From contig NC_014033.1 of the NCBI RefSeq assembly GCF_000025925.1, positions 390,001 to 422,000 of the forward strand: DNA of 32,000 bases. Direction: 5' to 3'. Both the position numbers and the translations under genes were made by a program. The notes beneath the pieces are model-generated. The model made no database searches, was not told the origin of the DNA, and saw nothing but the letters and a program-made list of their open reading frames with translations. Origin of the DNA: Xylanibacter ruminicola 23. GTDB lineage: Bacteria; Bacteroidota; Bacteroidia; Bacteroidales; Bacteroidaceae. Positions 5,411 to 26,850 of this stretch are shown piece after piece (positions within the stretch are counted from its first letter, which is position 1; each line of letters starts with the position of its first letter).

Positions 5411-5959
5411 ATGGCTTTATACAGTATTGAAAGCGAGCAGTGCCTCGGAATGTCCCATCACGGTGCAGTAACAGTAAACGGTGAGAGTGCAGTAGAACTC
5501 TCTGACGAGGAAGTGAACATCCTCGTCCAGCTTATCAAAGAGAAGGGAACCACCGATGTCGATGAGCTTGGCATCGCTACAACTCATCCTGATCTTTACG
5601 AGAAACTCGACGATGCTTATCGTAATATGGCCTACAAAGCTGAAGAGCTCCACTGGCTATGGGAGGGTTATCACAACGGGTACTTTGAGTATGATACCGA
5701 GGAACTGATGAACTATTGCGAGCAGGAACTTGGTTTTAGTTTTGAATCTGATGAGACAGACTGCGATTCTGATGATGTTGAAGAAGAAAAGTATGATGCC
5801 TTCTATGAGTGGCTCGATGACTACGTCAACGAACTGTCGGATGATGAGGCTGCATCCTTCTTCTATAATCATATGAATGCTAGTCTTGACATGGACTATG
5901 TGGAATATTCTGTTGAGATTCCTGCAGGTATAATCAAAAAATCTCAGGAGGTGTGTTAG
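5411..5959 (+). CDS. Hypothetical highly acidic protein (182 aa)
   Basis: Intact ORF behind motif m1. D/E-rich, especially ...FESDETDCDSDDVEEEKYDAFYEWLDDYVNELSDDEAASFF.... No family recognised. Confidence 0.6.
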   Translation: MALYSIESEQCLGMSHHGAVTVNGESAVELSDEEVNILVQLIKEKGTTDVDELGIATTHPDLYEKLDDAYRNMAYKAEELHWLWEGYHNGYFEYDTEELMNYCEQELGFSFESDETDCDSDDVEEEKYDAFYEWLDDYVNELSDDEAASFFYNHMNASLDMDYVEYSVEIPAGIIKKSQEVC

Positions 5960-6036: not shown

Positions 6037-7491
6037 ATGGAATTAATGATTATTGCAATTGTGAGTGTTGTTTTTGGCGTGTTAGTGGGAGTTTGGGCTA
6101 TGCAGAACCGCCAGAAGATGCTTCAGAACCAAGTAGAGAATCTTCAGTCTCAGATGCAACATGTCAAGGATGAGGCTCAAGAGAAACTGGAAACTGTCTT
6201 GGCTGAAAAGGATAAGGCCTGTGAGAACATGATTGAGGCTAAGGACAAGGCCTGCAATAACCTGATTGATGCTCAGGAGAAGCGACATCAAGAAAGTATC
6301 GCTGCCCAGGAAACGCGTCATCAGCAGACACTTGAAGCTCAGGAAAAGAGGCACAAGGAGGCTATTGCTGCGCAGGAGAAGAGACAGCAAGAAGCACTAT
6401 CAGCCCAGCAGTCACGCTTCAATGAAACTATGCAGAAAGTTACTGCACAGGTCAAATCGGCTACCGAAGATCTTCTGAAAAAGCGTCAGGAGGAGTTTGC
6501 TGCGGCGAGTAATGAGAATATTGGCCAGATTGTAAACCCACTCAAGGAGTCGCTCGACAAGATGAAACGAGCTATGGATGAGAGTACCCTTAAGCAGACA
6601 GAAATGGGGGGAGAGATGAAGTCTCAAATTTCTATCATGATGAGACAGAGTGAAGCTGCCAAGAAGAGTGCTGATGAACTTGCAAATGTCCTCAAACACC
6701 GTTCAAAGGTACAGGGTGACTGGGGTGAGACTGTTCTCGATGAATTGCTGGAGTCTCAGGGACTTACCAGAGGTGTACATTACGATGTGCAGCCCTATCT
6801 CAGAGACAAGAATGGCGACATCATTGTGTCAGACGAAGGTTCGAAGATGCGCCCAGACGTGATACTTCACTTGGATAAACAGCGCGAAGTGATTATCGAC
6901 TCAAAAGTGTCGTTGACAGCTTTTATGGACTACGCGAATGCAGAGAACGAGGAAGATAGGGATAGATTCCTGAAGGCACATGTCGATAGTATTAACAAAC
7001 ATGTGAAGGAACTGTCAACTAAAGACTACTCTTCATACATCAAGGCGCCCAAGGTTAAGATGGACTACGTCATCATGTTTGTGCCTCACACTGGTGCCCT
7101 TTGGACTGCACTGAATGCACAACCCGACCTTTGGCGAAAGGCTATGGATAAGAATGTGTTCATTGCCGATGAGCAGTCGCTGTTCGCTGCACTGCGTATC
7201 ATCAATCTTACCTGGACTCAGATCGCCCAGGCTCAGAATCAGGAGGAAGTATTCAGACTGGCTAATGAGATTCTCGACAGAGTAGGGCAGTTCATGAAAA
7301 AGTATCAGGCTATCGGCAAAGCCTTGAGTAATGCTACTGAAGCCTACAATGATGGCGAAAAGAAGCTGCAGCCCAGCGGTCAGAGCATCCTGCAGTCTTG
7401 TGGCAAGCTCATTAAGGTCGGTGCCAAGCAGAGTGTCAGGAATCCATTACCACAGCTTGCTGACGACGGAACTGATGTTTTATGTGCATAG
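6037..7491 (+). CDS. rmuC: DNA recombination protein RmuC (N-terminal TM helix, coiled coil, RmuC nuclease-like domain)
   Basis: 484 aa. N-terminal hydrophobic helix, then a long coiled coil. The C-terminal region ...RPDVILHLDKQREVIIDSKVSLTAF...DYVIMFVPHTGAL... is typical of the RmuC family (restriction-endonuclease-like fold). Confidence 0.85.
   Translation: MELMIIAIVSVVFGVLVGVWAMQNRQKMLQNQVENLQSQMQHVKDEAQEKLETVLAEKDKACENMIEAKDKACNNLIDAQEKRHQESIAAQETRHQQTLEAQEKRHKEAIAAQEKRQQEALSAQQSRFNETMQKVTAQVKSATEDLLKKRQEEFAAASNENIGQIVNPLKESLDKMKRAMDESTLKQTEMGGEMKSQISIMMRQSEAAKKSADELANVLKHRSKVQGDWGETVLDELLESQGLTRGVHYDVQPYLRDKNGDIIVSDEGSKMRPDVILHLDKQREVIIDSKVSLTAFMDYANAENEEDRDRFLKAHVDSINKHVKELSTKDYSSYIKAPKVKMDYVIMFVPHTGALWTALNAQPDLWRKAMDKNVFIADEQSLFAALRIINLTWTQIAQAQNQEEVFRLANEILDRVGQFMKKYQAIGKALSNATEAYNDGEKKLQPSGQSILQSCGKLIKVGAKQSVRNPLPQLADDGTDVLCA
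6202..6420 (+). repeat. Tandem 33-bp (11-residue) repeats inside the rmuC coiled-coil region
   Basis: AEKDKACENMIE / AKDKACNNLID / AQEKRHQESIA / AQETRHQQTLE / AQEKRHKEAIA / AQEKRQQEALS / AQQSRF. The repeats are also visible at DNA level as gctcaggagaag-type units. Confidence 0.8.
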
Positions 7492-7527: not shown

Positions 7528-7565
7528 AAATGGGCGGATCTTCATGATTCGCTCATTTTTTTCGT
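7528..7565 (+). terminator. Terminator-like hairpin after rmuC
   Basis: aaatgggcg ... cgctcattt forms a 9-bp stem with one mismatch, followed by a T-run (tttttttcg). Confidence 0.5.
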
Positions 7566-7571
7566 CCATGA

Positions 7572-7609
7572 TGTTAGATTTGTACTTTTCTGTGTACTAA
7601 TACATATGA
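7572..7609 (+). promoter_or_regulatory. Island promoter-like motif m3
   Basis: tgttagatttgtacttttctgtgtactaatacatatga, 85 nt upstream of the ATG at 7657. A CTGTTTAAAAC leader element follows. Confidence 0.6.
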
Positions 7610-7656
7610 GAGCTGTTTAAAACGGATTTATTGTTAAATTAAAAAATATTACAATT

Positions 7657-8040
7657 ATGACAGAACTGAGAAACAATTCCGAGTGCATGACACCCAGCAT
7701 GAACGCCCCTGTGCGTAACATCCACATCATCCCTGCCGGTGACATCCCTTATGAGGTGCGAATGAAGTACATCCTCAGAGCTTATCGTAAAGACAAGGAA
7801 CGTCTCGAGCAACTTCAACGCTATGCTGAGGGGCTAGAAGAGGAAAACGTTGCCCTTCAGAAGCAGCTCGAACAGAAGAAACTGGACAAAGAGGTTTCTA
7901 CTAAGAGAAAGAAGAAAATCTTTGAATTGACGCATCTTACCCAGAGTCAGAAGGTCTATATCGGTAGTCTTCAGCTTCTTCTTGCTGAACACGGTATACC
8001 TTTCCATGAAATGAAAACATTAATAACAATAACGAAATGA
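7657..8040 (+). CDS. Hypothetical coiled-coil protein (127 aa)
   Basis: Intact ORF behind motif m3. The central segment KDKERLEQLQRYAEGLEEENVALQKQLEQKKLDKE is coiled-coil-like. An ATGA overlap couples it to the next ORF. Confidence 0.55.
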   Translation: MTELRNNSECMTPSMNAPVRNIHIIPAGDIPYEVRMKYILRAYRKDKERLEQLQRYAEGLEEENVALQKQLEQKKLDKEVSTKRKKKIFELTHLTQSQKVYIGSLQLLLAEHGIPFHEMKTLITITK

Positions 8041-8243
8041 GATTTTATAAAAAAGTTTGGGGTATTATCTGGGAGTTTAACTCCATAGGTGAGTATATTA
8101 GTTTCTGCATTGGTAGGCTCTTGGGCGCCATCATATTCTTTGTTGGCCTGTATCTACTGGTAGAGTGTAGTGGCTCCGATGCCACTACCAATCCAGAATA
8201 CGACTACGAGCCCATCCCCGCCAGTTTCTATCAGTATGACTAA
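8037..8243 (+). CDS. Small membrane protein (68 aa), paralog of ORF 5087-5329
   Basis: MRFYKKVWGIIWEF... followed by a hydrophobic helix (LLGAIIFFVGLYLLV). Start/stop overlap (ATGA at 8037-8040) with the upstream ORF. Confidence 0.45.
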   Translation: MRFYKKVWGIIWEFNSIGEYISFCIGRLLGAIIFFVGLYLLVECSGSDATTNPEYDYEPIPASFYQYD

Positions 8244-8270
8244 GAGATGGGCCCGCCTTGTTGTGGTATT

Positions 8271-8840
8271 CTATTCGAATGAGATTCTTCCGCTGCCTAT
8301 TTCACTATATGCTTTTGCTGAGAGACTGCCGATGTGGAGCTTTCCGGCTGCTACACGTTCGCCATTATCCCTGATAAAGTCTTCGTTGGTGCCGATGAGA
8401 TAGGCAACTTCTTCTTCAGCAGGCTTATATAGGAAACAATCCTGATTGAATATTTCCGAAAGCTTATACAGGTTCTCGTAAAAGTCCGGATCATTGTTCC
8501 GGTCGAATACCAGAAAACTATTTTCCTTGCTCACATCTTGACCTACTTCAGCATAAAAACCTTGGAGCTTGATAATTCCATAACCCATGGCACGAAGCGC
8601 TTCCTGGAGTTTGCGGTTATTCGCATCATTTTCTGCACGTTTATTGCCAGACCTCCACGCAGTGATGTTGGCACAATCGGTTTTGTTTATCCAATACACT
8701 GCCCGATTAAGCGATGCATTTACAGGAAGAACACTCAGGTCTATTTCTTCTGCCTGAGGAGTGGGGGCTTTTGCAACAGCCTGTTCTTCTACGAGATCTT
8801 CAATCTCAAAAACTGGTAATAATACTTCAATTTTTTTCAT
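8271..8840 (-). CDS. Hypothetical protein (189 aa), last gene of the lower Ntn-pair operon
   Basis: Intact ORF starting 12 nt downstream of the Ntn gene stop codon. No family recognised. Confidence 0.6.
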   Translation of the reverse strand: MKKIEVLLPVFEIEDLVEEQAVAKAPTPQAEEIDLSVLPVNASLNRAVYWINKTDCANITAWRSGNKRAENDANNRKLQEALRAMGYGIIKLQGFYAEVGQDVSKENSFLVFDRNNDPDFYENLYKLSEIFNQDCFLYKPAEEEVAYLIGTNEDFIRDNGERVAAGKLHIGSLSAKAYSEIGSGRISFE

Positions 8841-8852
8841 GCTTTTTCGAAT

Positions 8853-9815
8853 TCAAATACCAAATTTACCATATTGTCCGCCTTTCGATGGTTCATACCA
8901 ACTTTTTCGGTTGAGCCATTGAAAACCATCTTCGCGAGTAATGACTGCGAGGTCGACAAGACCACCTACAGATTCTTGTCTGGAAGTTATTTTTCGATGT
9001 AATTCTGTGGCCTTAATCAGATTCTCTGCTAGGCAGGCCATTTTCTGGAGATCAAATTCTTTTATGGCTTCCAGGTGTTGGCGCAAATGCTCACGTCCAC
9101 TTTCTTTAATAATGTCCGTTACCTCTTGACGAATAGCGGGATAGTTTATCTTGCTTTTTAGGGAATCAAGCATGTTCTCATTTAGCAGATTATCAATGAG
9201 ATCTTGGAATTTTCTGCGGATAACACTAACACGGTCATCTTGTATGCCCAATTCTATGGCATCGATAATGTCGGATTGGCCACTCGTGAAAATATTGCTT
9301 TCTTGCTCATCTGATATGCTAGCACATCCGCAAGATTGCCATTGTAGTTTCGATTTGGATATTCCGATAACCTTATACTGGCAGATACTAGGGTAGGACT
9401 CTTCTTGACCATATCCAGCAAATACCAGATGTGTTATTTCTGCTTCTTCGAATGAATACTCCTTATTTATATACTTTGGTATTATTTCTGATTCTATAAA
9501 CTCTTTGAAATTATTAATATAGTCTTGAAATGTGGGAAAACCAGAACTATCATTCTGCTTGCGATACCACCTGATGATGACATCCCATGGAAGTTTTGTC
9601 AATAAAGCGTTGCCAACAATCATAACAGCAACAGGCTGTTTATCTTTTAATCGTAGCATTTTATCGCCAGAATTAACAACCTTGTCTTTGATTGAAATCA
9701 CTTTTTCATTCTTATTCTGAATGGTGACTTCCTGAATTGCATTGGTAAACGTCACAGCACTGTCGGCTGCGATGGCAATGCCTCTCTTATTTAAAATACC
9801 TACTATCGCTGTCAT
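8853..9815 (-). CDS. Proteasome beta/HslV-like N-terminal-nucleophile (Thr1) hydrolase, predicted active subunit (pair 1)
   Basis: The N-terminus MTAIVGILNKRGIAIAADSAVT places Thr at position 1 after Met removal and Asp at position 17. A conserved Lys lies in NSGDKMLRL, followed by VAVMIVG. A mid-protein VFAGYGQEESYP resembles the proteasome AGxD..gP.LY segment. The C-terminus ESVGGLVDLAVITREDGFQWL closes the match. It is clearly paralogous to ORF 19840-21165. Confidence 0.6.
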   Translation of the reverse strand: MTAIVGILNKRGIAIAADSAVTFTNAIQEVTIQNKNEKVISIKDKVVNSGDKMLRLKDKQPVAVMIVGNALLTKLPWDVIIRWYRKQNDSSGFPTFQDYINNFKEFIESEIIPKYINKEYSFEEAEITHLVFAGYGQEESYPSICQYKVIGISKSKLQWQSCGCASISDEQESNIFTSGQSDIIDAIELGIQDDRVSVIRRKFQDLIDNLLNENMLDSLKSKINYPAIRQEVTDIIKESGREHLRQHLEAIKEFDLQKMACLAENLIKATELHRKITSRQESVGGLVDLAVITREDGFQWLNRKSWYEPSKGGQYGKFGI

Positions 9816-9830
9816 ATTTACTCCTTTCCT

Positions 9831-10616
9831 TTAAGCACCATAGAGACTATGTTTGATATATACGAAACCTTCTGCAAGGGTTACTATTCCAATCTCGCGT
9901 GTAGGAGAAATGATAGAATCATTTGAACCAAGCAGACCTTCTGTCTCAATAAGATTCTCCGCCATTGACACCATGTCTTTAATGGTGAAATCAGAGACAA
10001 CTTGAGTTACTTTTGCGTCTTCCTGTATTTCCGTGAACATCTTTGCAATACTGTTTCTATCTCCTTCAATTAGGCCTGCGGCGGCATCCTTGTTGCCCAT
10101 TATATTGCCTAGAGTCTTATGTAACAAACTGCCCATTTTGTTTATAATATCTTCAGACACTCCTCCAGACAAAATACGGATATTCTCACAATTGCCTAGA
10201 TTTATTTGAAATACTGGTTTTCTTAAGCTTATTTCGTATTCATTTTTAAAGATGTTGAAGCCTTTTTCATTAGCAGAGATGTTAATAACTCCTGCACGAG
10301 GAAAAATGTCCTTAGGTTCGTAACCTACGCACACGATTATTTTATTGTTTTCCTTAGCCATGGTGTCTTTATCTACATGACTAAACGCTTCTTTAAGATA
10401 GTAGTAGAAGTCTTTTACGCTTTCATCGAAAGTGTTTTCTTGTGTAAGGCTTTTCTTGGCCTGATAGGCCATGATGATGTCGTCCCACCTTAGTCCAGAA
10501 GTCGGATCAACCATAATCGCAAAAGGTATTTTTTCGCTGTAGCGAAAAATGGTGTGGTCGCGACTGGATGCGCATACTGCACCATGCATGTTCATCATTA
10601 AAATTGCTGCTGCCAT
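9831..10616 (-). CDS. Proteasome-like Ntn-fold paralog, catalytically degenerate subunit (pair 1)
   Basis: 261 aa with the same layout as the downstream gene (AILMMNMHGAVCASS..., ...WDDIIMAYQAKK, IVCVGYEPKDIFP, ...IGIVTLAEGFVYIKH). The Thr1 and Asp17 equivalents are Ala and Ser in a hand alignment. Confidence 0.5.
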   Translation of the reverse strand: MAAAILMMNMHGAVCASSRDHTIFRYSEKIPFAIMVDPTSGLRWDDIIMAYQAKKSLTQENTFDESVKDFYYYLKEAFSHVDKDTMAKENNKIIVCVGYEPKDIFPRAGVINISANEKGFNIFKNEYEISLRKPVFQINLGNCENIRILSGGVSEDIINKMGSLLHKTLGNIMGNKDAAAGLIEGDRNSIAKMFTEIQEDAKVTQVVSDFTIKDMVSMAENLIETEGLLGSNDSIISPTREIGIVTLAEGFVYIKHSLYGA

Positions 10617-10632
10617 ATTGCTTCAGATTTTT

Positions 10633-10660
10633 TTGTTACTTCTGATTGCAAAAGTAACAA
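10633..10660 (-). promoter_or_regulatory. Hairpin (9-bp stem) embedding a canonical -7 box (TACTTTTG) upstream of the Ntn pair 1 genes
   Basis: ttgttactt / aagtaacaa inverted repeat. The complement of 10649-10656 reads TACTTTTG (TAnnTTTG), about 33 nt upstream of the ATG at 10616. The hairpin could also terminate the upstream sigma gene. Confidence 0.45.
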
Positions 10661-10709
10661 AAATACCTGAAACAACAAAACAGAAAAGAGAAAAAGTACG
10701 TTCTTATAT

Positions 10710-11441
10710 TTACGCCGCCTTTGCGTAGGCCTTCTGCAGTTGGTGCAGAATAGCCTTCTCGCGAAGGTCGGCAATGATGGCCTTCATTCTCCTGATGGGC
10801 AGCCCGTACTTCTTGGCAAGGTCGGAAACGGAATACCCGTCATACACCATCTGTGCCAAGTCCATCATCAGGTTTACATCGCTGGGATAGTACCACTTAC
10901 TTAGGAAAGAGCGCAGCCCCTCCTTGGTTTCCTCAAAGTCGCGAAGCATTTCACTGCTCAATGGTGCAGCGGGTATGCGGTCTATAAGGTCGCGGCTCCA
11001 GTTGTCATCATCTGTATCGTGACAGTCGTCAAGCGACAGACAGGCCTGAAGCCCCAGAAGGAGATTGGGGGTCTTGACGGAACATGTCCAGGTCCTGATG
11101 GCCTCGCTGATGGCTCTGCGGATGTGGTGTACCGCATATGAGCAGAAGTGATTATCGAATGAAGGGTTGTAGCGTGCAGCTGCTATGGTCAGACCGTAGT
11201 TGCCAGCTGCGATGAGTTCCTCGATGGGTACGAAGGGAGTGGCCATGTCGATGGCGCAGGTGAGTACAAAGCGCAGGTTGGCTTCGATGAGCTTGTTGCG
11301 AGCAGTGGTGTCGCCTGCCATGATGCGGCGGCCCAGTTCCTGCTCTTCTTCCATAGTGAGAGGCTGATTGTTCTCGATTTGCTCAAGGTAGACGTTGAAA
11401 CCTTCGGCATGATTCTCAAGGAGGTGATGCATTTTACTCAT
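10710..11441 (-). CDS. Sigma-70 family RNA polymerase sigma factor-like protein (243 aa)
   Basis: Region 1.2/2-like: ...PLTMEEEQELGRRIMAGDTTARNKLIEANLRFVLTCAIDMA...ELIAAGNYGLTIAAARYNPSFDNHFCSYAVHHIRRAISEAI. Region 4-like HTH: GYSVSDLAKKYGLPIRRMKAIIADLREKA. Confidence 0.7.
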   Translation of the reverse strand: MSKMHHLLENHAEGFNVYLEQIENNQPLTMEEEQELGRRIMAGDTTARNKLIEANLRFVLTCAIDMATPFVPIEELIAAGNYGLTIAAARYNPSFDNHFCSYAVHHIRRAISEAIRTWTCSVKTPNLLLGLQACLSLDDCHDTDDDNWSRDLIDRIPAAPLSSEMLRDFEETKEGLRSFLSKWYYPSDVNLMMDLAQMVYDGYSVSDLAKKYGLPIRRMKAIIADLREKAILHQLQKAYAKAA

Positions 11442-11466
11442 AATTCTACAGTTTTAATGATTACTA

Positions 11467-11504
11467 TCTATAGTATACAGACACCAAAACCCCGAAATCT
11501 AACA
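11467..11504 (-). promoter_or_regulatory. Island promoter-like motif m7 (upstream of the sigma-70-like gene)
   Basis: The minus-strand sequence reads tgttagatttcggggttttggtgtctgtatactataga. TGTTAGAT is exactly 63 nt upstream of the ATG, as in m1 and m6. GTGT at +20 and ATACTATAGA at +28 are identical to m1. A CATTAAAAC leader element follows. Confidence 0.55.
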
Positions 11505-11516
11505 AAGATCTCGGGG
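11486..11516 (-). terminator. Terminator-like hairpin after the peptidase-RyR gene, overlapping motif m7
   Basis: The minus-strand sense reads ccccgagatc-tttgtta-gatttcgggg (10-bp stem with one mismatch) followed by TTTT. It lies 31 nt downstream of the stop codon at 11548. Confidence 0.5.
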
Positions 11517-11547
11517 AAATATGCTTAAAAGATGTTAATACTGCAGA

Positions 11548-12564
11548 TTATTTATCTTTTGTGATTCTATACCCTAGACGCTGCACAAGTTCGAGAGTGC
11601 CTCGTGCCATAATACGATCGTATTTCTTTTCACTTTCAGTTAGATCGCTGTAGGGAACAAGGTCAGGGTGTTTCTTATGTTTGTCATCGCGTACGTCACC
11701 ATATGTCCACTTATCTTCTATTCTGGCTTTTGCCCAAATGTCATGAGCATTTTCGGCTATGGCTTCCATTAGCTCCTCTAGATCTCCTTCAAGTTTAAAA
11801 CTACTTGCATCAATGGGAGATGGATTGTATTTCCGAACACCTCGCTTTGTTACAGATATAATATAATAATGTGAATCCTGCCATGCAAACATAAAGTTAG
11901 TAGTAGGATGAGTTTCTTCCTGGGCATGCTGTGGGTCGTAGATACGTACCTGTTTGTCGTTGGCAGATAGAACCACTACGGCATGATTAGGTATATTCCG
12001 TTCCGTATTGTTGCTATATAGTTTGTCGGCATTTACAACTGCTATGATTTTACATCCATCATTTAACTCTTTGTTAATGAGATCGTATTCGCAATCGTAG
12101 CGGCGTACTACCGAGAGACGATAAAATTCTGACAGTAGTCTACCGATATGGTGTAGTGGGGTGCCACCAACCTTAAGCCAACCTTTTCCTCGTGATTGTT
12201 CTGTAAGTGATTCTACCGTAGTTTTTATGCCGAATTGTTGTAATAAGTAATGTTCACAACGAACCACGCAATCGTTAGGAGCTTTCATGTCGTGACCATA
12301 CTCTCTGCTTTTGGCCGCCAGCCTGTACATAGGGAGATATGTTGCCGTCATCGAAATGACATTTGCAGGCGATACCTTTTGGGTTCGCTCTTTACTGATG
12401 TGTATATCTGCCAACTTGTTTGATATTGACATCATGATTTCTATTTCTTCCTTTAGGTCGGGATTTTGCTCCGCCGCTAGGAGTATCATTTCGGTTTCTT
12501 CGCCGGTTGCTTTTCCTGCATAAAACCGCGACATCAGTTCGTTTGTTATTCTTTGCTTAGCCAT
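11548..12564 (-). CDS. Fusion protein: anti-sigma-like N-terminal segment + papain-like (C39-like) cysteine peptidase domain + C-terminal RyR domain
   Basis: The start is taken at Met30 of the track ORF (ATG 12562-12564), which gives an 8-nt overlap with the upstream gene rather than 95 nt. N-terminus: MAKQRITNELMSRFYAGKATGEETEMILLAAEQNPDLKEE, the pattern of an anti-sigma N-terminal helix pair. Middle: Cys/His pair in NDCVVRCEHYLL ... IPNHAVVVL ... IYDPQ. C-terminus: AIAENAHDIWAKARIEDKWTYGDVRDDKHKKHPDLVPYSDLTESEKKYDR, matching the RyR (PF02026-type) consensus. Confidence 0.55.
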   Translation of the reverse strand: MAKQRITNELMSRFYAGKATGEETEMILLAAEQNPDLKEEIEIMMSISNKLADIHISKERTQKVSPANVISMTATYLPMYRLAAKSREYGHDMKAPNDCVVRCEHYLLQQFGIKTTVESLTEQSRGKGWLKVGGTPLHHIGRLLSEFYRLSVVRRYDCEYDLINKELNDGCKIIAVVNADKLYSNNTERNIPNHAVVVLSANDKQVRIYDPQHAQEETHPTTNFMFAWQDSHYYIISVTKRGVRKYNPSPIDASSFKLEGDLEELMEAIAENAHDIWAKARIEDKWTYGDVRDDKHKKHPDLVPYSDLTESEKKYDRIMARGTLELVQRLGYRITKDK

Positions 12565-13246
12565 ATATAATCTTTTTTCCGATTTTGAAAAAGAGTTTGG
12601 TGAATGCCTCATTAGCCCTCTTCCTGTCTTGTGATATATTTGTGGAGTCAATGCTTAAATAAGGCATTTCATCTCCCCAGAATTTTCTTCTCATAATTTC
12701 TGCATATTTCTCATTGTCCATCATGTCAACAACCATTCTGATTCTTTCGTTGATATCATTTTTTATCAAATTTTGTTCAGGATTCAGTTCGGGTTTGTTG
12801 TCTGAAACTAGCGAGGGCACTTCTTTTTGAACTCCCCTTGCTATTATTTCATCATGACGTTTATTCTTTTTTCTTTCAGCACTCCTTTGTTCCTGATAAT
12901 GGGCTATGGCCTTTCTTGCTAACCAGATTATGATGCTACCACCCTCAGTTTCGTATTCGCGCAGTTTACTTTTGTCTTTAAATAGAAAGTAGAGGTTATT
13001 AAAGACTTCTGCTTTTACACTATATGCTTCTCTGTTACGAAAGATACTTTCTTGGATGATTGTAACTACTTCGTCAAATTGACCTCCATAGAAAAGCTGG
13101 TTGATGACGTTTATGTCATCATTAAGCAGCCCTTCATAAATCTCACTATCAGATAAATATTCTTTTTTCTCCTCCATGGGGGCAAAGATACGAATTATAT
13201 CTGGAATAAACAAGATTTTGGTAGAATTATTGTGTAACGTTGACAT
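12557..13246 (-). CDS. ECF-type sigma factor-like protein (alternative start at 13177)
   Basis: Region 2-like: ...VKAEVFNNLYFLFKDKSKL...GGSIIIWLARKAIAHYQEQ. Region 4-like: ...IRMVVDMMDNEKYAEIMRRKFWGDEMPYLSI...RKRANEAFTKLF. It sits directly upstream of, and overlaps, an anti-sigma-like gene. The sequence is divergent, so the call is tentative. Confidence 0.4.
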   Translation of the reverse strand: MSTLHNNSTKILFIPDIIRIFAPMEEKKEYLSDSEIYEGLLNDDINVINQLFYGGQFDEVVTIIQESIFRNREAYSVKAEVFNNLYFLFKDKSKLREYETEGGSIIIWLARKAIAHYQEQRSAERKKNKRHDEIIARGVQKEVPSLVSDNKPELNPEQNLIKNDINERIRMVVDMMDNEKYAEIMRRKFWGDEMPYLSIDSTNISQDRKRANEAFTKLFFKIGKKIIYG

Positions 13247-13255
13247 AAGTGTTGC

Positions 13256-13807
13256 TCAGTTGATGCTTTTTAGCTGGGAGTCGATGATGACTTCCAGCCC
13301 GTTGTATACAGCAGGTATGACGGTGCGGCCGCAATACTGGCGAGGGTTGCCGATGGTAAGTTCCTCGCAGCCTATCATTCTGGCAACGACCTTGCGTACA
13401 AATGCCACAGCCATACTCATCATGTGGTCGAAGTCCTTGGCTGTGTATGCTATCATGCGGTCAGGATTAGCCATGAATATAGCGCGATAGAGACGAGCGA
13501 GCTCAGGGAAATCCTTCTCTGGCTTGTTCAGACTGCGACGCTGATACCCCATGGGGTGGAGTAGGGTGTAGATATATATCAGTTTCGAGTAACGGTCCTC
13601 GAACTTGATGACCTCCTCCGTGTTGTCATCCTTCAGTACGATGACGTCGTAGATGTTAGTACCTGAGATGTCCTTGATGTCGCGATGGCGCACCTCAATA
13701 GCGACGGGTTGGGGTGCCCACTCCTTATCTGCTGCCATGTACTCTGCCAGACGCTGCTGCATTTCTTCTACACTCATTTGCTGGATTGCATCTTGAATTT
13801 TGCTCAT
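13256..13807 (-). CDS. Hypothetical protein (183 aa), first gene behind motif m6
   Basis: Intact ORF, with motif m6 exactly 63 nt upstream of its ATG. No family recognised. Confidence 0.6.
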   Translation of the reverse strand: MSKIQDAIQQMSVEEMQQRLAEYMAADKEWAPQPVAIEVRHRDIKDISGTNIYDVIVLKDDNTEEVIKFEDRYSKLIYIYTLLHPMGYQRRSLNKPEKDFPELARLYRAIFMANPDRMIAYTAKDFDHMMSMAVAFVRKVVARMIGCEELTIGNPRQYCGRTVIPAVYNGLEVIIDSQLKSIN

Positions 13808-13954: not shown

Positions 13955-16900
13955 TTAACCATTCTTCATCAATTCTTTCAGTGTTGCAATCTTTTCTTCT
14001 GTTTGATGAATGCTGTCATCTGATTCGTTTTGCTCATGTTTGAGTTTCAAGCACAACTCAAACTCTTCAAGAGCCTCGTCATAACGACCAAGGTCTTGAT
14101 AGACAGATGCTAAAGTGTCTATAATATAAGGCGTTTCAGGGAATGCCGCAACAGCTTTCTCTGCCCAAGGCAGGGCTTCTTCGTATCGTCCTGACAAATG
14201 GAGAGTCCATGCAATTCCATTATATGCTTTTTTATAGCCATTCTCAGCTGATTTCTTATACCATTCAATGGCCTTTTCATAATTTTGTTCTGTACCACAC
14301 CCATTCGCATACATCCAGCCGAGATTATTTTGAGCGACAGAGTAACCTCCTTCTGCGGCTTTATAAATTAAATCAAAGGCTTTCTCGCCATTTTGTTCCA
14401 CACCTTGCCCTAATCTGTATTTTACTCCTAATTGATTCTGAGCTAATACATGGCTTTGTTCAGCAGCCATACGATATAATTCAATCGCTTTATCAAGATT
14501 AGGTTCTATTCCTTTACCATATTCATAGATTAATCCCAAATTATATTGTGCTCTGGCGTCTCCTTGTTCAGCAGCTTTACTATACCATTCTGCTGCAACT
14601 ACGTAATTTTTCTCAACTCCTTTACCTATTTCATACATATGACCAATATAAAACTGTGCATTTGTATCTCCAAGAGTAGCTGCTTTCTCAAGCCATTGGC
14701 TTGCCAAATTGTTATCGCCAATATTTAGATAGAGGTGTCCTAGCTTTCTATATGTTCTAACTGTGTCTGGATGTTCTGCCCCCAGTACTTTTTCTCTTAT
14801 TTCTAATGCTATCATGTAATACTCCAGTGCATGGTCGTAATTGCCGATATCTTTGTATAAGACACCGATGTTGTAATATGAGCTTGCCGTGTCAGGATGA
14901 TCCTTGCCATGGACTTTCTTTCGGATTTCCAAGGCCTGCTTGTAATACTCCAGTGCCTTGTCGTAATTTCCGAGATTATTGTATACGTTGCCAATGTTGT
15001 TATATGCCATAGCTGTATTAGGATGTTCCTTGCCAAGGACTTTCTCGCAGATGTCTAAAGCATGCTTATGACATTCCAGCGCTTTGTCATAATTTCCGAG
15101 ATCATTATATGTGTTACCGATATTGTTATATGAACTTGCCGTGTCAGGATGTTCCTTGTCCCAGACTTTCTCTCGGATATCCAAAGCCTTCTTGTGAAAC
15201 TCCAGTGCATGGTCGTAATTGCCGATATCTTTGTATACGTTGCCGATGTTGTTATATGATCCAGCTGTATCAGAATGCTCCTTGCCCAGAATTTTCTCTC
15301 GAATATATAATGCCTTCTTATGAAACTCCAATGCCTTGTCGTAATTGCCGATCTCAGAGTATACGTTGCCGATGTTGCTATATAAGCGTGCTGTACCAAG
15401 GTGTTCTTTGCCCAGAACTTTCTCAAGAATATTCAAAGCCTGCTTTTGATACTCCAATGCCTTGTTGTAATCGCCGAGTTCTAAGTATACGAGTCCAATG
15501 TTGGTATATGCCATAGCTGTATTAGGATGCTCCTTGCCAAGGACTTTCTCGCAGATTTCTAAAGCATGCTTATGATATTCCAGAGCCTTGTCATAATTGC
15601 CTAGATGGTAGTATCCGATGCCGATGTTGTTATACGAACCGGTTGTGTCAAGGTGGTCCTTGCCCAAGACTTTCTCTCGGATATCCAAAGCCTTCTTATG
15701 AAACTCCAGTGCCTTGTCATAATTTCCGAAATCAAAGTAAACAAGACCGATGTTGTTGTATGAGTCGGCTGTGTCAAGATGTTCCTTGCCTAGAACTTTC
15801 TCTCGGATATCCAAAGCATGCTTGTGATATTCCAAAGCCTTGTCGTAATTGCCGAAATCATAATATACGATACCAATATTGCTATATGTGCGTACCGTGT
15901 CAGGATGTTCCTTACCCAGGATTTTTTCTCGGATATTCAAAGCTTGTTCGAAATACTTCAGTGCTTTGTCGTAATTACCCAAACAATCGTTTACGATACC
16001 GATGTTGTTATATGAGCGGGCTGTGTCAGGATGCACCTTGCCATGGAAATCTTCACACATCTTTATTTGTCTGTTGTGTATTTCTATTGCATTGTCGAAA
16101 ATGGCATGGTCACGAAGGAAACCTGAATATTCCCAAAAGAAATCGATATATTTATCTTGATCATAGTTTATCTCCTGTGCAATTGCATCGGCAAGTTTGT
16201 AGATTTCTTCTGCCTGTTTGATGCGTTCATCAATAAGAATACTAGCATCTGCCATAATAGAAGTTGCCTTGAGTGACAACTCTTTGATAGATATAATAAG
16301 ATTCTGTCGTTTCTGTTCTGTTATCTCCTTGCTTTGTTTATACTCGTTCAATAGGCATTTAGCATCTTCTTCTGCTTCATTGAGAATTGTGTTGGCTTCA
16401 CGTACTAGCCCTTCGTTAAGAGCATCCATTGCTCGACGTATACGATCATTAATCTCTTCTCCTTGTAATTTTGCAACACGTTTCGCTGTATTAAACAATA
16501 GTTCTTGATGTTGGGCAAAATCTTCCTTCAACTTATTGTATTTGTTAAGCTTGGGTTGGAGGTTATCAATCAGCTTTTCTACATCCTTTTTTATATAATT
16601 ATAATCCTCCTGACAGTCTTCGTCATCAGGGGTTTCTTCTAACTTTGCCTTTTTGGTATCTAGTCTTCTTTGTTTCTTTTCAAGTTCAATTTGCATCTCC
16701 TCAATTTCTTTGCGAAGTTCATGAATGTCAGTCTGCATTCTGAGAAAATCTTCGTTAGCTGCAGCAAATTTGAGATTCTCCATTTTGGCAAATGGAAGGC
16801 CATTGATGGTTACAACGCCATCTTCTACCTTCACATTATCCATCTGGCTGCTTTCAACCAACTGCAACTGCATTACAAACTGGAACTGAAGGCTTTCGCG

Positions 16901-17314
16901 ATTGTCATAGCGACACCAGTAGTGCCCCATCTCGTCAAAGAGTCTTTTTTTGAATTCCTTCAGTTCGGGTGTTTCTTCTTCTCCTGGTTTCAAATCTTTG
17001 CAATATGTATATACCTTTGGAGATGATTTTTCTTTGAATTCATCTGAAGCTATATTGAACTCCTCTACAGTAAACTCTCCTGCTTTCTTGTGGAATAAGG
17101 CTAAGAAGATATCACTCTGTCGTACATAATCGTTGTATTCGTCCTGTTTACGTTTATCATTATAGGCAGAATCATAGTCTTCCCATTCAAACAGTTTTAT
17201 TCGAATGCCACGTTTCTCATACATATTATCCAAACGACGAACCAGATTACCGAACGCCATTCGATCGTAATCCATTTCCTCTGATGATGCCAGGAATATC
17301 TTGATAGTCTTCAT
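13955..17314 (-). CDS. Large sensor-like protein: DUF4062/TIR-like N-domain + coiled coil + 10-11 TPR (42-aa, KLC-type) + ~4-5 Sel1 repeats
   Basis: 1119 aa. N-domain: MKTIKIFLASSEEMDYDRMAFGNLV...VRQSDIFLALFHKKAGEFTVEEFNIA...PKVYTY (beta-alpha Rossmannoid pattern like DUF4062). Residues about 170-400 are coiled coil. Then ten near-identical HPDTAxSYNNIGxVYxxLGNYDKALEYHKKALDIREKVLGKE units. Then Sel1 units (GDARAQYNLGLIYEYGKGIEPNLDKAIELYRMAAEQ and similar). Confidence 0.7.
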   Translation of the reverse strand: MKTIKIFLASSEEMDYDRMAFGNLVRRLDNMYEKRGIRIKLFEWEDYDSAYNDKRKQDEYNDYVRQSDIFLALFHKKAGEFTVEEFNIASDEFKEKSSPKVYTYCKDLKPGEEETPELKEFKKRLFDEMGHYWCRYDNRESLQFQFVMQLQLVESSQMDNVKVEDGVVTINGLPFAKMENLKFAAANEDFLRMQTDIHELRKEIEEMQIELEKKQRRLDTKKAKLEETPDDEDCQEDYNYIKKDVEKLIDNLQPKLNKYNKLKEDFAQHQELLFNTAKRVAKLQGEEINDRIRRAMDALNEGLVREANTILNEAEEDAKCLLNEYKQSKEITEQKRQNLIISIKELSLKATSIMADASILIDERIKQAEEIYKLADAIAQEINYDQDKYIDFFWEYSGFLRDHAIFDNAIEIHNRQIKMCEDFHGKVHPDTARSYNNIGIVNDCLGNYDKALKYFEQALNIREKILGKEHPDTVRTYSNIGIVYYDFGNYDKALEYHKHALDIREKVLGKEHLDTADSYNNIGLVYFDFGNYDKALEFHKKALDIREKVLGKDHLDTTGSYNNIGIGYYHLGNYDKALEYHKHALEICEKVLGKEHPNTAMAYTNIGLVYLELGDYNKALEYQKQALNILEKVLGKEHLGTARLYSNIGNVYSEIGNYDKALEFHKKALYIREKILGKEHSDTAGSYNNIGNVYKDIGNYDHALEFHKKALDIREKVWDKEHPDTASSYNNIGNTYNDLGNYDKALECHKHALDICEKVLGKEHPNTAMAYNNIGNVYNNLGNYDKALEYYKQALEIRKKVHGKDHPDTASSYYNIGVLYKDIGNYDHALEYYMIALEIREKVLGAEHPDTVRTYRKLGHLYLNIGDNNLASQWLEKAATLGDTNAQFYIGHMYEIGKGVEKNYVVAAEWYSKAAEQGDARAQYNLGLIYEYGKGIEPNLDKAIELYRMAAEQSHVLAQNQLGVKYRLGQGVEQNGEKAFDLIYKAAEGGYSVAQNNLGWMYANGCGTEQNYEKAIEWYKKSAENGYKKAYNGIAWTLHLSGRYEEALPWAEKAVAAFPETPYIIDTLASVYQDLGRYDEALEEFELCLKLKHEQNESDDSIHQTEEKIATLKELMKNG
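14774..16033 (-). repeat. Coding tandem array of 126-bp TPR units with a 504-bp (4-unit) higher-order repeat
   Basis: Ten consecutive 42-codon units. gccatagctgtattaggatg(t/c)tccttgccaaggactttctcgcagat(g/t)tctaaagcatgcttatga occurs at 15006 and again at 15510, exactly 504 nt apart. Spurious repeat-derived ORFs appear in other frames of the track (for example 15055-15426 and 15109-15516). Confidence 0.85.
17043..17314 (-). repeat. Near-identical 272-bp segment shared with 19547-19818 (5' ends of the two TPR genes)
   Basis: Hand comparison finds 4 mismatches in 272 nt, all synonymous. The offset is exactly 2504 nt. Identity falls sharply 3' of this block. Confidence 0.9.
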
Positions 17315-19818: not shown

Positions 19819-19839
19819 AAATGCGAATGTTTTAACGAT

Positions 19840-21165
19840 TTATATTCCGAATTTGCCGTAGCGGCCACCTACATCTTTGTGGTGGTACCAGCTTTTGCGA
19901 TTGAGCCAGGTGAATCCATTGTTCTTTGTGATTACGGCCAGGTCTATGGGGCCACCAACACTTTCTTGTGAGAAGGTCATGTGGCGCTCAAAGCTGGTCA
20001 TGGCGATAAGATTCTCTGCCAAGTTTGCCATGTCCTGAACACTATAGTTGTTGAGTGCCTTCAGCCATTGACGACGTTCTTCTACTAGAATCCGTTTTCC
20101 ATATTGCTTGAACTTGCGAGTCAGATCGTTTAATTTCACCTTGTTGAGTATAGCGTCAATCTCTTCGGATTCTTCCACCGACATACAATCAATGGATAGC
20201 TGTTTTTTTATCTCGTTAAACATATTCTCAGAAATACTACAAACATTTCTGAAGAAATGTGGTTCAACTCCTGTAAGCAGAGCATCCATAATATCTGTCT
20301 GAGCATACGGACAGATTGCAACGGGATTGGCATCGGATATGGCATGTATGTCTTCTGGATCAATATAGTAGCAGATGCGATTGTCAAATCCATGGCTGAC
20401 CATTACCCTAATCATTACTGGATATTCCTCGTCACTGCCGTATCCAGAAAATATAAGGTTGGTTTTGCCATACTCATATCCATATGTCATATATGAGAAA
20501 AAGCCTTCTATAAATAATTCTTTGATTTCAGACAATATGTCTTTTGGATATTCGTTTGAAAACGTGTCGTCTTCCTCAAACAAAGGTGAGTCTAAAACGG
20601 CAGTCTTCCTTGCAAAAAGATTATCAACCATAGAGTCGAGATACTCTTTAAATTGGTTGATGGTGTAATCTTTATACATGGGTAGTGGCGTAAACTCATG
20701 GAAGAATTTGATTCCGGATTCAATGCGCTTGTGAAACGCATCAACAATCTGTTTTTTGTTTGTAACTACTCTCTCCTCGTTTATGTTTATATCTGGTACT
20801 TGACACACTGCATCATCCCAGAATGAATGAAGCATGTTTCTTAGATAATTCCGTTGTATTTCCTCTGGAAAGAATATCTTCTCTGTTAACATATACGAGA
20901 AGAAATCATCGATACAGGCTTGGACGGTCGGGAATTGTATGTTGCCACGTTTCTGCCGATAACGGCGTATAATAACATCCCATGGAGTACAAAGAAAGGA
21001 TGCCGAGCCAACTATCATGACGCTAACGGGGCAGGCGTCAGACATTCTCAACATTTTGTTGGCTGAATTCTCAACCTTTTCGTTACCGTCTCGTGTCATC
21101 GTGACGGCACTATCTGCCGCAATTGCAATACCGCGCTTATTTAAAATGCCTACTACTGCTGTCAT
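19840..21165 (-). CDS. Proteasome beta/HslV-like Ntn (Thr1) hydrolase, predicted active subunit (pair 2)
   Basis: The start is preferred at the ATG 21163-21165, giving MTAVVGILNKRGIAIAADSAVTMTRDGNEKVENSANKMLRM (Thr1, Asp17, conserved Lys), as in ORF 8853-9815. The track start at 21195 would add a 10-aa hydrophobic leader (MFIWIIILTI) and overlap the upstream gene by 19 nt. Also contains FSGYGSDEEYP and the C-terminus ESVGGPIDLAVITKNNGFTWLNRKSWY...GKFGI. Confidence 0.6.
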   Translation of the reverse strand: MTAVVGILNKRGIAIAADSAVTMTRDGNEKVENSANKMLRMSDACPVSVMIVGSASFLCTPWDVIIRRYRQKRGNIQFPTVQACIDDFFSYMLTEKIFFPEEIQRNYLRNMLHSFWDDAVCQVPDININEERVVTNKKQIVDAFHKRIESGIKFFHEFTPLPMYKDYTINQFKEYLDSMVDNLFARKTAVLDSPLFEEDDTFSNEYPKDILSEIKELFIEGFFSYMTYGYEYGKTNLIFSGYGSDEEYPVMIRVMVSHGFDNRICYYIDPEDIHAISDANPVAICPYAQTDIMDALLTGVEPHFFRNVCSISENMFNEIKKQLSIDCMSVEESEEIDAILNKVKLNDLTRKFKQYGKRILVEERRQWLKALNNYSVQDMANLAENLIAMTSFERHMTFSQESVGGPIDLAVITKNNGFTWLNRKSWYHHKDVGGRYGKFGI

Positions 21166-21176
21166 AATTGTCAAAA

Positions 21177-26136: not shown

Positions 26137-26186
26137 TGCAATTCCTGTCTTTTTCCAAAGGAAAATCAAAAAAAGTTGCTATAATG

Positions 26187-26224
26187 TGTTAGATATTTCC
26201 TTTTTCGTGTACTATTATTATATA
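26187..26224 (+). promoter_or_regulatory. Island promoter-like motif m4
   Basis: tgttagatatttcctttttcgtgtactattattatata, 67 nt upstream of the ATG at 26254. It is preceded by CAAAAAAAGTTGCT, which is also present upstream of m5. Confidence 0.6.
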
Positions 26225-26253
26225 CGAATTATTTATCTAAACCCGTTTTATAT

Positions 26254-26802: not shown

Positions 26803-26816
26803 TAGTGCACTTTTTC

Positions 26817-26842: not shown

Positions 26843-26850
26843 AAAATGTT

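Follow-up and report, generated by a model that had tools for sequence, protein, structure and literature searches.

What is the function of a bacterial gene block that joins an RyR domain, two proteases of different type and sigma-like proteins? We addressed this question for a block in Xylanibacter ruminicola 23, within a window of 32,000 nt (NC_014033.1, positions 390,001-422,000; all coordinates are window positions). Seven closely spaced open reading frames (ORFs) lie between 8271 and 13807, all on the minus strand, as an earlier note on this DNA, made from the letters alone, had placed them. In the order of transcription they encode p183 (183 aa, 13256-13807), a conserved protein without an assigned family; p229 (229 aa, 12557-13246), a candidate divergent sigma-like protein of the extracytoplasmic function (ECF) type; an RyR-peptidase fusion (338 aa, 11548-12564); Sig243 (243 aa, 10710-11441), of the sigma-70 family; NtnD (261 aa, 9831-10616), from its residues a catalytically dead paralogue of NtnA; NtnA (320 aa, 8853-9815), a proteasome-like Ntn hydrolase of the active type; and a 189-aa protein (8271-8840) of the S-AdoMet-lyase family. 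The reading that we put first, and tentatively, is that the block is a receptor-protease-sigma defence switch, the downstream one of two modules that make up a system within a defence island of Bacteroidales. The evidence for it is anatomical, and each functional step is one that we infer.

The stop of p229 and the start of the fusion gene overlap by 8 nt, read directly in the sequence as ATGGCTAA and as the earlier note had described it. Comparison with homologues places the start of the fusion gene at the ATG at 12564 and not at a TTG further upstream. Directly 3' of the fusion gene is a terminator-like hairpin (11490-11516, minus strand) with a G+C-rich stem of 10-11 bp followed by TTTT. 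An intergenic alignment finds it kept in five related loci (L001, L004, L084, L087 and L090), and the TGTTAGA box of a promoter-like element in front of sig243 coincides in part with its 3' arm. The position of the hairpin and T-run suggests two transcription units.

The RyR-peptidase fusion

The fusion protein consists of a helical N-terminal part (about residues 1-70), a C39-like peptidase and an RyR domain. PF02026 matches the RyR domain with E 7e-33 and 113 bits (cutoff 27.4), close to the 119 bits of a stand-alone RyR protein encoded elsewhere in the window, and against PDB the bacterial RyR entries 3NRT and 6UAG are matched with E 1e-29. The Peptidase_C39 match is sub-threshold (E 1.5e-3, 18.8 bits, cutoff 22); PF03412 is a precomputed match in 17 of the 34 homologue clusters of the N-terminus plus peptidase part. 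Six homologues aligned from related loci all have Cys99, His194 and Asp210, and the motifs NDCVV, NHAVV and YDPQ are found also in the second type of fusion described below. The spacing of 16 from His to Asp matches that of C39 peptidases. The papain-like Cys/His peptidase that the earlier note had read next to the RyR domain is supported in that the Cys/His pair is conserved in homologues, a condition that the note had set. The N-terminus plus peptidase part is fused to RyR in 33 of the 34 clusters, and the peptidase was never seen without RyR, a pattern that fits a ligand-controlled enzyme. The obligatory fusion likewise fits a receptor role of the RyR domain.

Candidate ligands come from work on phage and animal proteins. 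Phage RyR-domain proteins bind or cleave 2' and 3' cyclic ADP-ribose (2'cADPR and 3'cADPR) via H75, W78, H100 and D117, and the authors report that these pocket residues of the protein RyDEP are conserved in animal R12 domains (PMC13232231). An animal R12 domain binds the adenine nucleotides ADP and AMP-PCP, according to the accessible part of PMC12627627. H274, W277, H299 and D316 of the fusion have a spacing (+3, +22, +17) identical to that of the RyDEP pocket, an equivalence by spacing and not by alignment to RyDEP. All six aligned homologues keep H274, W277 and D316, and at position 299 they have H, S or N; the equivalent position of the stand-alone RyR is Thr. RyDEP and the RyR domains of the window share the PF02026 family and a single repeat that is expected to dimerise, and by spacing the fusion would have the four pocket residues as well. 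They differ in that RyDEP is viral, stand-alone or otherwise fused, and anti-defence, whereas the domains here are encoded in a host island, fused to a peptidase or placed in an Ntn operon, and located beside putative signal makers.

Distribution and the tightest recurring unit

The gene order of the window recurs in about 40 Prevotellaceae/Bacteroidales loci from gut and rumen. Gene content and order hold in L001-L004 and L084-L091, where NtnA is 44-69% identical, as well as in some 25 other loci from metagenomes. The shared block comprises a DUF4062 or DUF4062-like protein with NB-ARC/NACHT and/or TPR/Sel1 parts, p183, p229, the fusion, Sig243, NtnD, NtnA and a variable gene, and the TIR-like (DUF4062) TPR/Sel1 or STAND protein is almost always encoded just upstream of the rest. 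A metagenome scan with the fusion protein identified two families. Type I fusions (about 335 aa) occur in the full module. Type II fusions (about 440 aa, 33-39% identical to type I) carry two tandem RyR repeats, are preceded by a longer p229-like protein (311-411 aa), and adjoin a DUF4062-NACHT-TPR protein (DUF4062 E 2e-11); these loci are without Ntn, Sig243 and p183. In both families the p229-type and fusion genes are adjacent, either overlapping or 3-36 nt apart where the sigma-like gene precedes. Because type II keeps both genes without Ntn, the tightest recurring unit, as judged from gene content, is the sigma-like protein plus the peptidase-RyR fusion, beside a TIR-like sensor. The type II loci (L117-L135, e.g. 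L119 9021-11320 and L118 11420-14902) lie beside a divergent operon for an AAA+ (Cdc48/ClpB-like) ATPase and a WG-repeat protein, and have ordinary TAnnTTTG promoters.

The earlier note had taken RyR plus the Ntn pair to be the conserved core. In a survey of Ntn genes with one genome per species (79 loci), Ntn is nearly always one gene of about 430 aa that lacks both a dead partner and RyR, also after iterative searching; the groups concerned include Flavobacterium, Pedobacter, Chitinophaga, Dyadobacter and Saprospiraceae. RyR was found in 15 of 91 Ntn loci overall, which are 15 of the 16 loci that have an NtnD/NtnA pair. The exception (L005) is a contig fragment of a metagenome-assembled genome whose other contig (L007) carries RyR genes. 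RyR adjacency is therefore real for the pair, as the note expected, and the proposed core holds within a narrow Bacteroidales clade; beyond it Ntn stands alone, without partner or RyR, in 75 other Bacteroidota loci sampled, and type II fusions do without Ntn. RyR plus Ntn as a universal pair was rejected on the count of 15 in 91. On this distribution the Ntn pair is an accessory that has been combined with RyR twice in a Bacteroidales clade.

Sigma-type proteins

Sig243 passes three curated profiles: Sigma70_r1_2 (E 8e-6, 26.1 bits, cutoff 22), Sigma70_r2 (E 1.5e-5, 25.1 bits, cutoff 24) and TIGR02937 (E 1.2e-13, 51.1 bits, cutoff 42.9, residues 47-229). By these matches it is a sigma-70 family protein with regions 1.2, 2 and 4, which agrees with the sigma-70-like gene that the earlier note had seen between the fusion gene and the Ntn pair. 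A paralogue, Sig238, is encoded at 28221-28937. Both match the PADLOC profile MzaA (Sig243 E 2.7e-8, Sig238 E 1.8e-18). MzaA (NCBIfam NF041931) is a sigma-70 region-2 protein inside a defence system, the MZA anti-phage system, and in that respect resembles Sig243 and Sig238; it is about 700 aa long, whereas the two window proteins match it in region 2 only, and no other Mza component was matched among the window proteins scanned.

For p229 the evidence is structural. Its AlphaFold2 model has a predicted local distance difference test score (pLDDT) of 70, and 49 of the 50 Foldseek matches listed are sigma factors, with ECF sigmas first: AlgU (E 0.02, probability 0.98), sigmaE, SigH and SigL. 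The C-termini of distant p229 homologues match Sigma70_r4_2 (E 4e-4) and Sigma70_r4 (E 6e-3), below threshold. From the model and the distant homologues, p229 is a plausible, weakly supported ECF-like sigma.

A private promoter-like element

Intergenic alignments across loci identified an element, TGTTAGA-N14-TGTACTA, about 60 nt before the ATG of both p183 and sig243. Its consensus is tTGTTAGAtttt-N8-(g/c)TGTACTAAgTATATAgAAG, and in an alignment of 11 copies TGTTAGA and TGT do not vary. In the window the combined pattern occurs twice (0.00 expected) and the TGTTAGA box with its flank seven times (0.54 expected). There are 35 copies in 484 kb of type I loci, as compared to 1 in 1.19 Mb of control Bacteroidota loci and 0 in 169 kb of type II loci, and 32 of 36 copies are positioned 59-175 nt upstream of p183, sig243 or p229 in sense orientation.

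Two of the seven window copies belong to the block, on the minus strand. P5 (13834-13872, CTTGTTAGA-N14-TGTACTAAGTATATAG) is 62 nt upstream of p183, and the element is found at this place in 15 related loci. P4 (11464-11506, TTGTTAGA-N-TGT..TACTATAG) is about 60 nt upstream of sig243, with an equivalent 59-66 nt upstream of sig243 in 15 related loci. The other five are on the plus strand: P1 (5346-5384) upstream of an ORF for an acidic 182-aa protein (5411-5959), P2 (5952-5990) upstream of an RmuC-family gene (6037-7491), P3 (7570-7608) upstream of an ORF for a basic 127-aa protein (7657-8040), P6 (26185-26223) upstream of a LigT(2H)-PARG-NADAR-Sig238-p409 operon (26254-30205), and P7 (30358-30396), which closely resembles P6 and its upstream flank and has no ORF behind it.

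NtnD has a different type of promoter. Alignment of the window with L004 and L090 identifies a TAnnTTTG-type promoter upstream of NtnD (10633-10660, minus strand; -7 box TACTTTTG), with TAnnTTTG boxes at this position also in L001, L084 and L087. TAnnTTTG is the ordinary Bacteroidetes -7 consensus. The stand-alone RyR gene and the type II sigma-like genes carry such boxes as well. A 9-bp perfect inverted repeat, TTGTTACTT/AAGTAACAA, overlaps the NtnD promoter at 10633-10660, is kept in L004 and L090, and could be an operator.

The element looks like a -35/-10 pair foreign to the main sigma of the host, and its presence correlates with that of Sig243-type sigmas. We infer a private sigma/promoter regulon with positive feedback, whose reader would be among Sig243, Sig238 and p229. 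A transcriptional output, which the earlier note had offered as a possibility, has become more plausible with an element of this kind before the p183 operon, sig243 and five other sites of the island. A phage promoter as the origin of the element was rejected, IMG/VR holding only 17 single exact matches, about the chance level. A scan for the sigma-70 consensus promoter (49 found, 40 expected) is uninformative for a Bacteroidetes genome. No Rfam family was found in the window.

The RmuC gene of the window lies 1 kb beyond the module with a private element and may belong to the same regulon. An RmuC-family gene is positioned between sig243 and NtnD in L087-89 (7562-9043), and ORFs of 400-494 aa occupy this place in L106-L108. 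P6 and P7 share their upstream flank, AAAAAGTTGCT...TGTTAGATATT (26170-26230 and 30343-30400), and bracket the LigT-PARG-NADAR-Sig238-p409 cassette like direct repeats; P7 is located at the G+C rise where the island ends.

The TIR-like proteins and the first module

Upstream of p183 a 1119-aa protein is encoded (13955-17314, minus strand), with a TIR-like (DUF4062-like) N-domain, a coiled coil, a TPR_12 array and Sel1; the TPR and Sel1 parts are Pfam matches. Beyond it lies a module that we call module 1 (17320-22327, minus strand), in the order stand-alone RyR (22022-22327), NtnD (21177-22025), NtnA (19840-21165) and an 832-aa TIR-like/TPR protein (17320-19818). Its genes are clustered also in L004, L006, L007 and L111, and in L008 the RyR gene follows the TPR gene. 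The N-domains of the 1119-aa and 832-aa proteins match DUF4062 just below threshold, and their putative catalytic Glu85 is invariant with clear DUF4062 proteins of L084, L087 and L090, in which DUF4062-STAND-TPR proteins fill the slot upstream of p183. The 1119-aa gene is orthologous to the gene upstream of p183 in L001 (64% identity), and the protein has a Sel1 C-terminus in common with the DUF4062-NB-ARC protein of L084. For these two reasons we assign the 1119-aa gene to the block at 8271-13807, as its probable sensor and signal generator, and the 832-aa paralogue to module 1. The earlier note had missed this TIR-like TPR/Sel1 or STAND gene directly upstream of p183, which gives the system a likely input.

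DUF4062 is reported to be a TIR-like NADase family in phage defence (preprints 10.64898/2026.05.01.722283 and 10.64898/2026.09.04.749371). The first 90 residues of the 1119-aa and 832-aa proteins (17050-17314 and 19554-19818, minus strand) are identical, as compared to 54% identity overall, which suggests that gene conversion has recently made the N-domains of the two modules alike.

The Ntn pair

NtnA begins MTAIVG, and Thr2 would be its N-terminal residue once Met is removed. By sequence the likeness to proteasome beta subunits is weak (Pfam E 0.008; profile against PDB E 0.07). The AlphaFold2 model (pLDDT 80.5, 39 homologues in the alignment) was compared with PDB by Foldseek, and each of the top 50 matches listed is a subunit of a 20S proteasome (E 1e-5 to 2e-4, probability 1.00), with template-modelling (TM) scores of 0.35-0.59 that are lowered by insertions. 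In the model NtnA has the alpha-beta-beta-alpha Ntn sandwich fold of the 20S beta/HslV type. Invariant in the 39 homologues are Thr2, Asp18, Lys52 and E281-x-V-G-G (ESVGG), so that NtnA has, by alignment, an N-terminal Thr, equivalents of Asp17 and Lys33 and a Gly-rich C-terminal motif. The GG region aligns to Thermoplasma beta residues 174-193 in a profile comparison of borderline E (0.07).

NtnD starts MAAA..., without Thr1, and in the alignment the Lys-bearing segment and the GG motif are gone as well. With these three losses, the pair would consist of one active and one dead subunit. NtnD and NtnA match each other with BLASTP E 1e-5. The second pair was described in the earlier note as paralogous to the first, and this stood: the two active-type genes (8853-9815 and 19840-21165) match with BLASTP E 2e-35 and 6e-29, the two degenerate partners with E 4e-22, and the active paralogues end in the near-identical tail ESVGG..DLAVIT..WLNRKSWY..GKFGI. 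The start that had been given for the active gene of module 1 was moved from 21195 to the Met of MTAVVG at 21165. Because identity between the two pairs is only 25-50%, the duplication appears to be old, the block at 8271-13807 (module 2) being by sequence an anciently diverged paralogue of module 1.

NtnA matches phrog_5990 (E 3e-52). There are about 1900 homologous clusters, and among the 120 listed none has a Pfam domain. Fuchs, Alva and Lupas catalogued 22 uncharacterised proteasome homologues, several with multiple insertions (Fuchs et al. 2021, PMC8665760), and the NtnA family may be among these groups. In their paper, homologues such as PMI ('multiple insertions') also have Thr1 right after Met and no propeptide, and like NtnA combine a proteasome-like fold with large insertions, in bacteria and phages. 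The word 'operon' is absent from the text of that paper, the passages searched give no operon context, and an active/dead heteropair or a linkage to RyR or TIR-like genes is apparently not described there.

The invariant C-terminal tail of NtnA (residues 303-320, ..WYEPSKGGQYGKFGI) is predicted to be disordered (pLDDT <50) and might serve to dock other proteins, such as those with TPR/Sel1 parts encoded nearby or the dead partner. In L009-L078 (e.g. L011 11276-11497, L016 and L019) a conserved ORF of about 70-80 aa begins 0-20 nt behind the single Ntn gene (about 430 aa) and in the same orientation, with the motif ...DVLSVFKQ....IQQGMS.KEISEIVSEKII.VVKEQFE.TK. This ORF is absent from the window; from its recurrence, Ntn plus small protein looks like a two-gene module across Bacteroidota.

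Defence context

Several window proteins match PADLOC profiles: an 877-aa kinase (PD-T4-6/mad6, E 5e-30), RmuC (RTasRmuC, E 7e-67; RmuC Pfam E 3e-82), NADAR (PDC-M42C), an AAA_14 gene (PDC-S01) and the two sigmas that match MzaA. Restriction, McrBC-like, GmrSD and Schlafen-like genes border the related loci. The island also carries NUDIX, PARG, NADAR and 2H-phosphoesterase (LigT) genes, with a Macro gene in L087. TIR_2 or ThsB_TIR genes occur within or beside the slot of the last operon gene, and TIR-like genes flank both fusion families. Together, the TIR-like flanks, the TIR genes of the tail slot and the NUDIX, PARG, NADAR and 2H genes point to NAD-derived chemistry.

Proposed mechanism and its alternatives

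In the reading that we tentatively put first, the upstream TIR-like (DUF4062-type) TPR/Sel1 or STAND protein would detect infection and convert NAD+ to ADP-ribose (ADPR) or a cyclic nucleotide of the ADPR type as the signal. This nucleotide would be bound by RyR, both in the fusion and in the stand-alone protein of module 1. Binding would activate the C39-like cysteine peptidase, probably through dimerisation, and the peptidase would free or alter the translationally coupled p229 and, with p229, Sig243. The private sigma would then read TGTTAGA-N14-TGTACTA before the p183-p229-fusion operon and sig243, giving positive feedback, and the regulon would extend to RmuC, two small genes and the LigT-PARG-NADAR-Sig238-p409 operon. 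The Ntn pair, an active and a dead alpha/beta-like subunit expressed from an ordinary host promoter, may serve as a standing protease effector or processing enzyme. The last operon gene may supply an exchangeable metabolite- or signal-directed enzyme, the S-AdoMet-lyase relative here and a Macro-TIR protein elsewhere. The regulated proteolysis with transcriptional output that the earlier note had suggested is thus plausible in outline; the note had misplaced the core and missed the TIR-like input and the island-wide promoter.

Several observations weigh against this sequence of events. p229 has no match in Pfam, NCBIfam, PHROGs, PADLOC or PDB sequences, its profile-profile comparison with the Sig243 family (hhalign) is in the right register and not significant, and the fold match is weak (E 0.02, TM about 0.3); of the ECF-like sigma in the earlier note, the likeness of fold remains, from Foldseek and the distant homologues, and a sequence match does not. 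The anti-sigma-like N-terminus that the note had assigned to the fusion finds no Pfam match to an anti-sigma domain up to E 10 in five homologues and is statistically unsupported, the resemblance being one of pattern seen by eye (L..F/Y..G..T.EE......AA...P). The isolated N-domain of the window matches DUF4062 with E 3.6e-4 and 21.1 bits, covering the whole profile and falling below the cutoff of 24.7, and locus L105 has no TIR-like gene upstream. One DUF4062 preprint reports plain hydrolysis of NAD+ to ADPR and not a dedicated cyclic signal. The RyR domains retain the H/D dyad that is catalytic in RyDEP and so could destroy a signal rather than sense it, and the phosphate-binding His is the variable position noted above. 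Promoter function of the element is read from its position and conservation, and none of the three candidate sigmas is singled out as its reader.

The main rival places the same genes in the same defence system and gives the RyR domain another task. RyR would cleave or sequester cADPR-type signals, acting as a threshold or off-switch, and peptidase, sigma and Ntn would be controlled otherwise. The only prokaryotic-virus RyR proteins tested are glycosidases or sponges for 2'/3'cADPR (PMC13232231), and the H/D dyad is invariant in the RyR domain of the fusion. Many other enzymes that process ADPR are encoded in the island (NUDIX, PARG, NADAR and 2H/LigT, with Macro in L087), and the operon contains an S-AdoMet-lyase relative; a host enzyme of that fold degrades the signal in CRISPR defence, according to the accessible part of PMC12255297. 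However, six of eight phage homologues tested bound without cleaving although they are highly conserved, so the dyad does not predict catalysis (PMC13232231). An off-switch would need neither a covalent fusion to a peptidase that is never found without RyR nor translational coupling to a sigma-like protein in two divergent families. We consider this rival unlikely.

Another reading takes the cluster not for host immunity but for cargo that a mobile element or the remnant of a prophage carries for counter-defence or takeover. RyR would sponge Thoeris signals, the S-AdoMet lyase would block restriction-modification, PARG, NADAR, NUDIX and LigT would undo ADP-ribosylation, and the private sigma factors and promoters would run an early programme specific to the element. 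A private sigma with non-host promoters is a typical phage strategy, and the best-known member of the S-AdoMet-lyase family, T3 SAMase, serves a phage against restriction. There are 245 phage records with RyR domains, and phage RyR proteins act against Thoeris; the Ntn family is PHROG 5990, with 13 phage or satellite records; L004 is flanked by the element-like genes AAA_25, HU-HIG and Amidase_2; and a phage-encoded member of the S-AdoMet-lyase family has been proposed as an anti-CRISPR, in the accessible part of PMC12255297. Yet the 32-kb window contains no structural, replication, integration or conjugation genes and no tRNA. Pattern-based scans of IMG/VR found neither the fusion nor close NtnA relatives, and the element stands there at about chance. 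The TIR-like-STAND-TPR sensors, the PD-T4-6-like kinase and the other PADLOC-matching genes are hallmarks of defence. We therefore favour host or island immunity, and regard cargo of this kind as improbable. In an 'unverified bacteriophage' contig (L136) we found a 61%-identical RyR gene with no Ntn beside it, a case that is uninformative. Distant Ntn relatives (about 30% identity), annotated as hypothetical, lie at the ends of Streptococcus satellite phages Javan (H2-H11) and in a Porphyromonas phage (H1), positions at satellite ends or in a prophage that are typical of accessory cargo.

Least probable, and in our view very unlikely, is a housekeeping or stress regulon unrelated to phages, in which RyR would sense adenine-nucleotide or NAD status and an alternative sigma would be under regulated proteolysis by the C39 peptidase and the proteasome-like protease: sigma/anti-sigma plus protease logic is classical there (e.g. 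RsiV, RsiP), R12 domains bind ADP and ATP analogues (accessible part of PMC12627627) and the Ntn pair has an ordinary host promoter, but the distribution is patchy and narrow with two diverged copies in one island, neighbours and tail gene vary, and the association with TIR, DUF4062-STAND, restriction, GmrSD and kinase defence genes is atypical of core physiology. Counter-defence cargo and stress regulon remain unlikely even when taken jointly.

A more specific form of the receptor-protease-sigma switch covers both modules. Here host RyR domains would be the receptors of an ADPR-derived messenger made by the TIR-like sensors, in a Bacteroidales pathway not recognised so far. They would switch on a heteromeric Ntn protease and a C39 peptidase whose own N-terminus holds a sigma, and the sigma, once released, would start the island regulon from the private promoter. 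We regard this form as possible and rather doubtful. If the receptor reading is right, RyR would be a new receptor domain of TIR-type nucleotide immunity, with two new types of effector, an active/dead proteasome-like pair and a sensor-fused C39 peptidase. The immune system would have its own sigma factor or factors and a promoter code driving a multi-operon regulon that includes RmuC and ADP-ribose-processing enzymes. In the more specific form, immune signalling with NAD-derived nucleotides would for the first time involve a proteasome-type protease and a sigma with a promoter of its own, and the RyR repeat would be an ancestral (c)ADPR receptor module. The receptor reading bears on the long-standing question in animal physiology of whether the RyR repeat directly senses (cyclic) ADP-ribose; small soluble bacterial RyR proteins beside presumptive signal synthases would make that question testable. 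The Ntn family, with its roughly 1900 clusters across Bacteroidota, prophages and Streptococcus satellites, would gain a first functional context.

Relation to known systems

Literature searches gave no account of bacterial defence in which RyR goes together with Ntn, sigma or C39 genes. A TIR-to-protease branch of Thoeris was reportedly described in a 2025 paper. The locus resembles Thoeris in that a putative NAD+-consuming protein of the TIR superfamily is encoded beside a protein with a candidate domain for ADPR-derived nucleotides and a protease, in a defence island. Thoeris receptors are SLOG, Macro or other known domains, whereas the putative sensor here is RyR. The TIR-like domain here is of the DUF4062 type and joined to TPR/Sel1 or STAND parts, C39-like and proteasome-like proteases stand in place of caspase-like ones, and sigma factors and a private promoter are added. 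The window proteins include no ThsA-like protein and no PADLOC Thoeris match, and ThsB_TIR was found only in the tail gene of L087-89. By analogy, the module may work like Thoeris without being a member of it.

A nucleotide sensor that acts on a sigma through a protease has precedents in type III CRISPR. In CalpL-CalpT-CalpS, a SAVED-Lon protease activated by cyclic tetraadenylate (cA4) cleaves an anti-sigma and frees an ECF sigma; Craspase-Csx30-sigma is a further case. The logic proposed for the locus is the one found there: a protease carries a nucleotide sensor and is genetically coupled to an ECF-like sigma, so that an immune signal has a transcriptional output. The parts differ and are without homology: the sensor here is RyR and not SAVED, and the protease is C39-like and not Lon or CHAT. 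Unlike CalpL/T/S, the locus has no CRISPR, the protease would provide an anti-sigma, if there is one, with its own N-terminus, and the locus has a second, sigma-70-type factor and the Ntn pair. Control by a sigma/anti-sigma pair is also known for CBASS and CRISPR loci (PMC11506125).

The DUF4062 (NIR) proteins Swarozyc, Evangelion and Avs2-NIR of the 2026 preprints provide a third comparison, as far as their accessible parts go. Related loci carry an upstream DUF4062-STAND-TPR protein of this kind, and the window N-domain would be a diverged relative with the Glu kept. In those systems the output is NAD+ degradation or depletion by the DUF4062 domain itself, whereas here a multi-gene downstream apparatus is attached to the TIR-like gene. 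Neither Thoeris nor CalpL/T/S nor Craspase has anything that corresponds to the sensor, to either protease, to p183 or to the promoter, and the locus is a member of none of them. We read it, tentatively, as an undescribed branch of anti-phage immunity with NAD-derived signals, several parts of which are unprecedented.

Flanking genes of the module

The proteins encoded at the two ends of the block had both been called uncharacterised in the earlier note. This holds for p183, in that no explanatory Pfam domain was found: no shared Pfam domain is present in ten representatives, Cellulase and TPR matches lying in unrelated parts or chimeras. It does not hold for the 189-aa protein, which matches S-AdoMet_lyase PF23780 (E 2.9e-14, 53.6 bits, cutoff 28) and by this match is a member of the S-AdoMet-lyase family. 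p183 is the most conserved member of the module, with 77-78% identity in L001, L087 and L090 as compared to about 45-69% for NtnA and 27-46% for p229. An exhaustive HMMER search among 1.84 billion proteins retrieved only 45 representatives. In L084-86 p183 is split into ORFs of 81 and 101 aa, a frameshift or assembly error. The slot after NtnA varies: it holds an S-AdoMet-lyase relative in L001-4 and L084-86, a Macro plus ThsB-type TIR protein in L087-89, and unrelated genes in L090. The 877-aa protein (23453-26086) ends in a Ser/Thr kinase domain, its long N-terminal region being without an assignment, and is followed by a 156-aa protein (22982-23452); the same kinase and a protein of about 154 aa also come after the module of the 8271-13807 type in L084-86.

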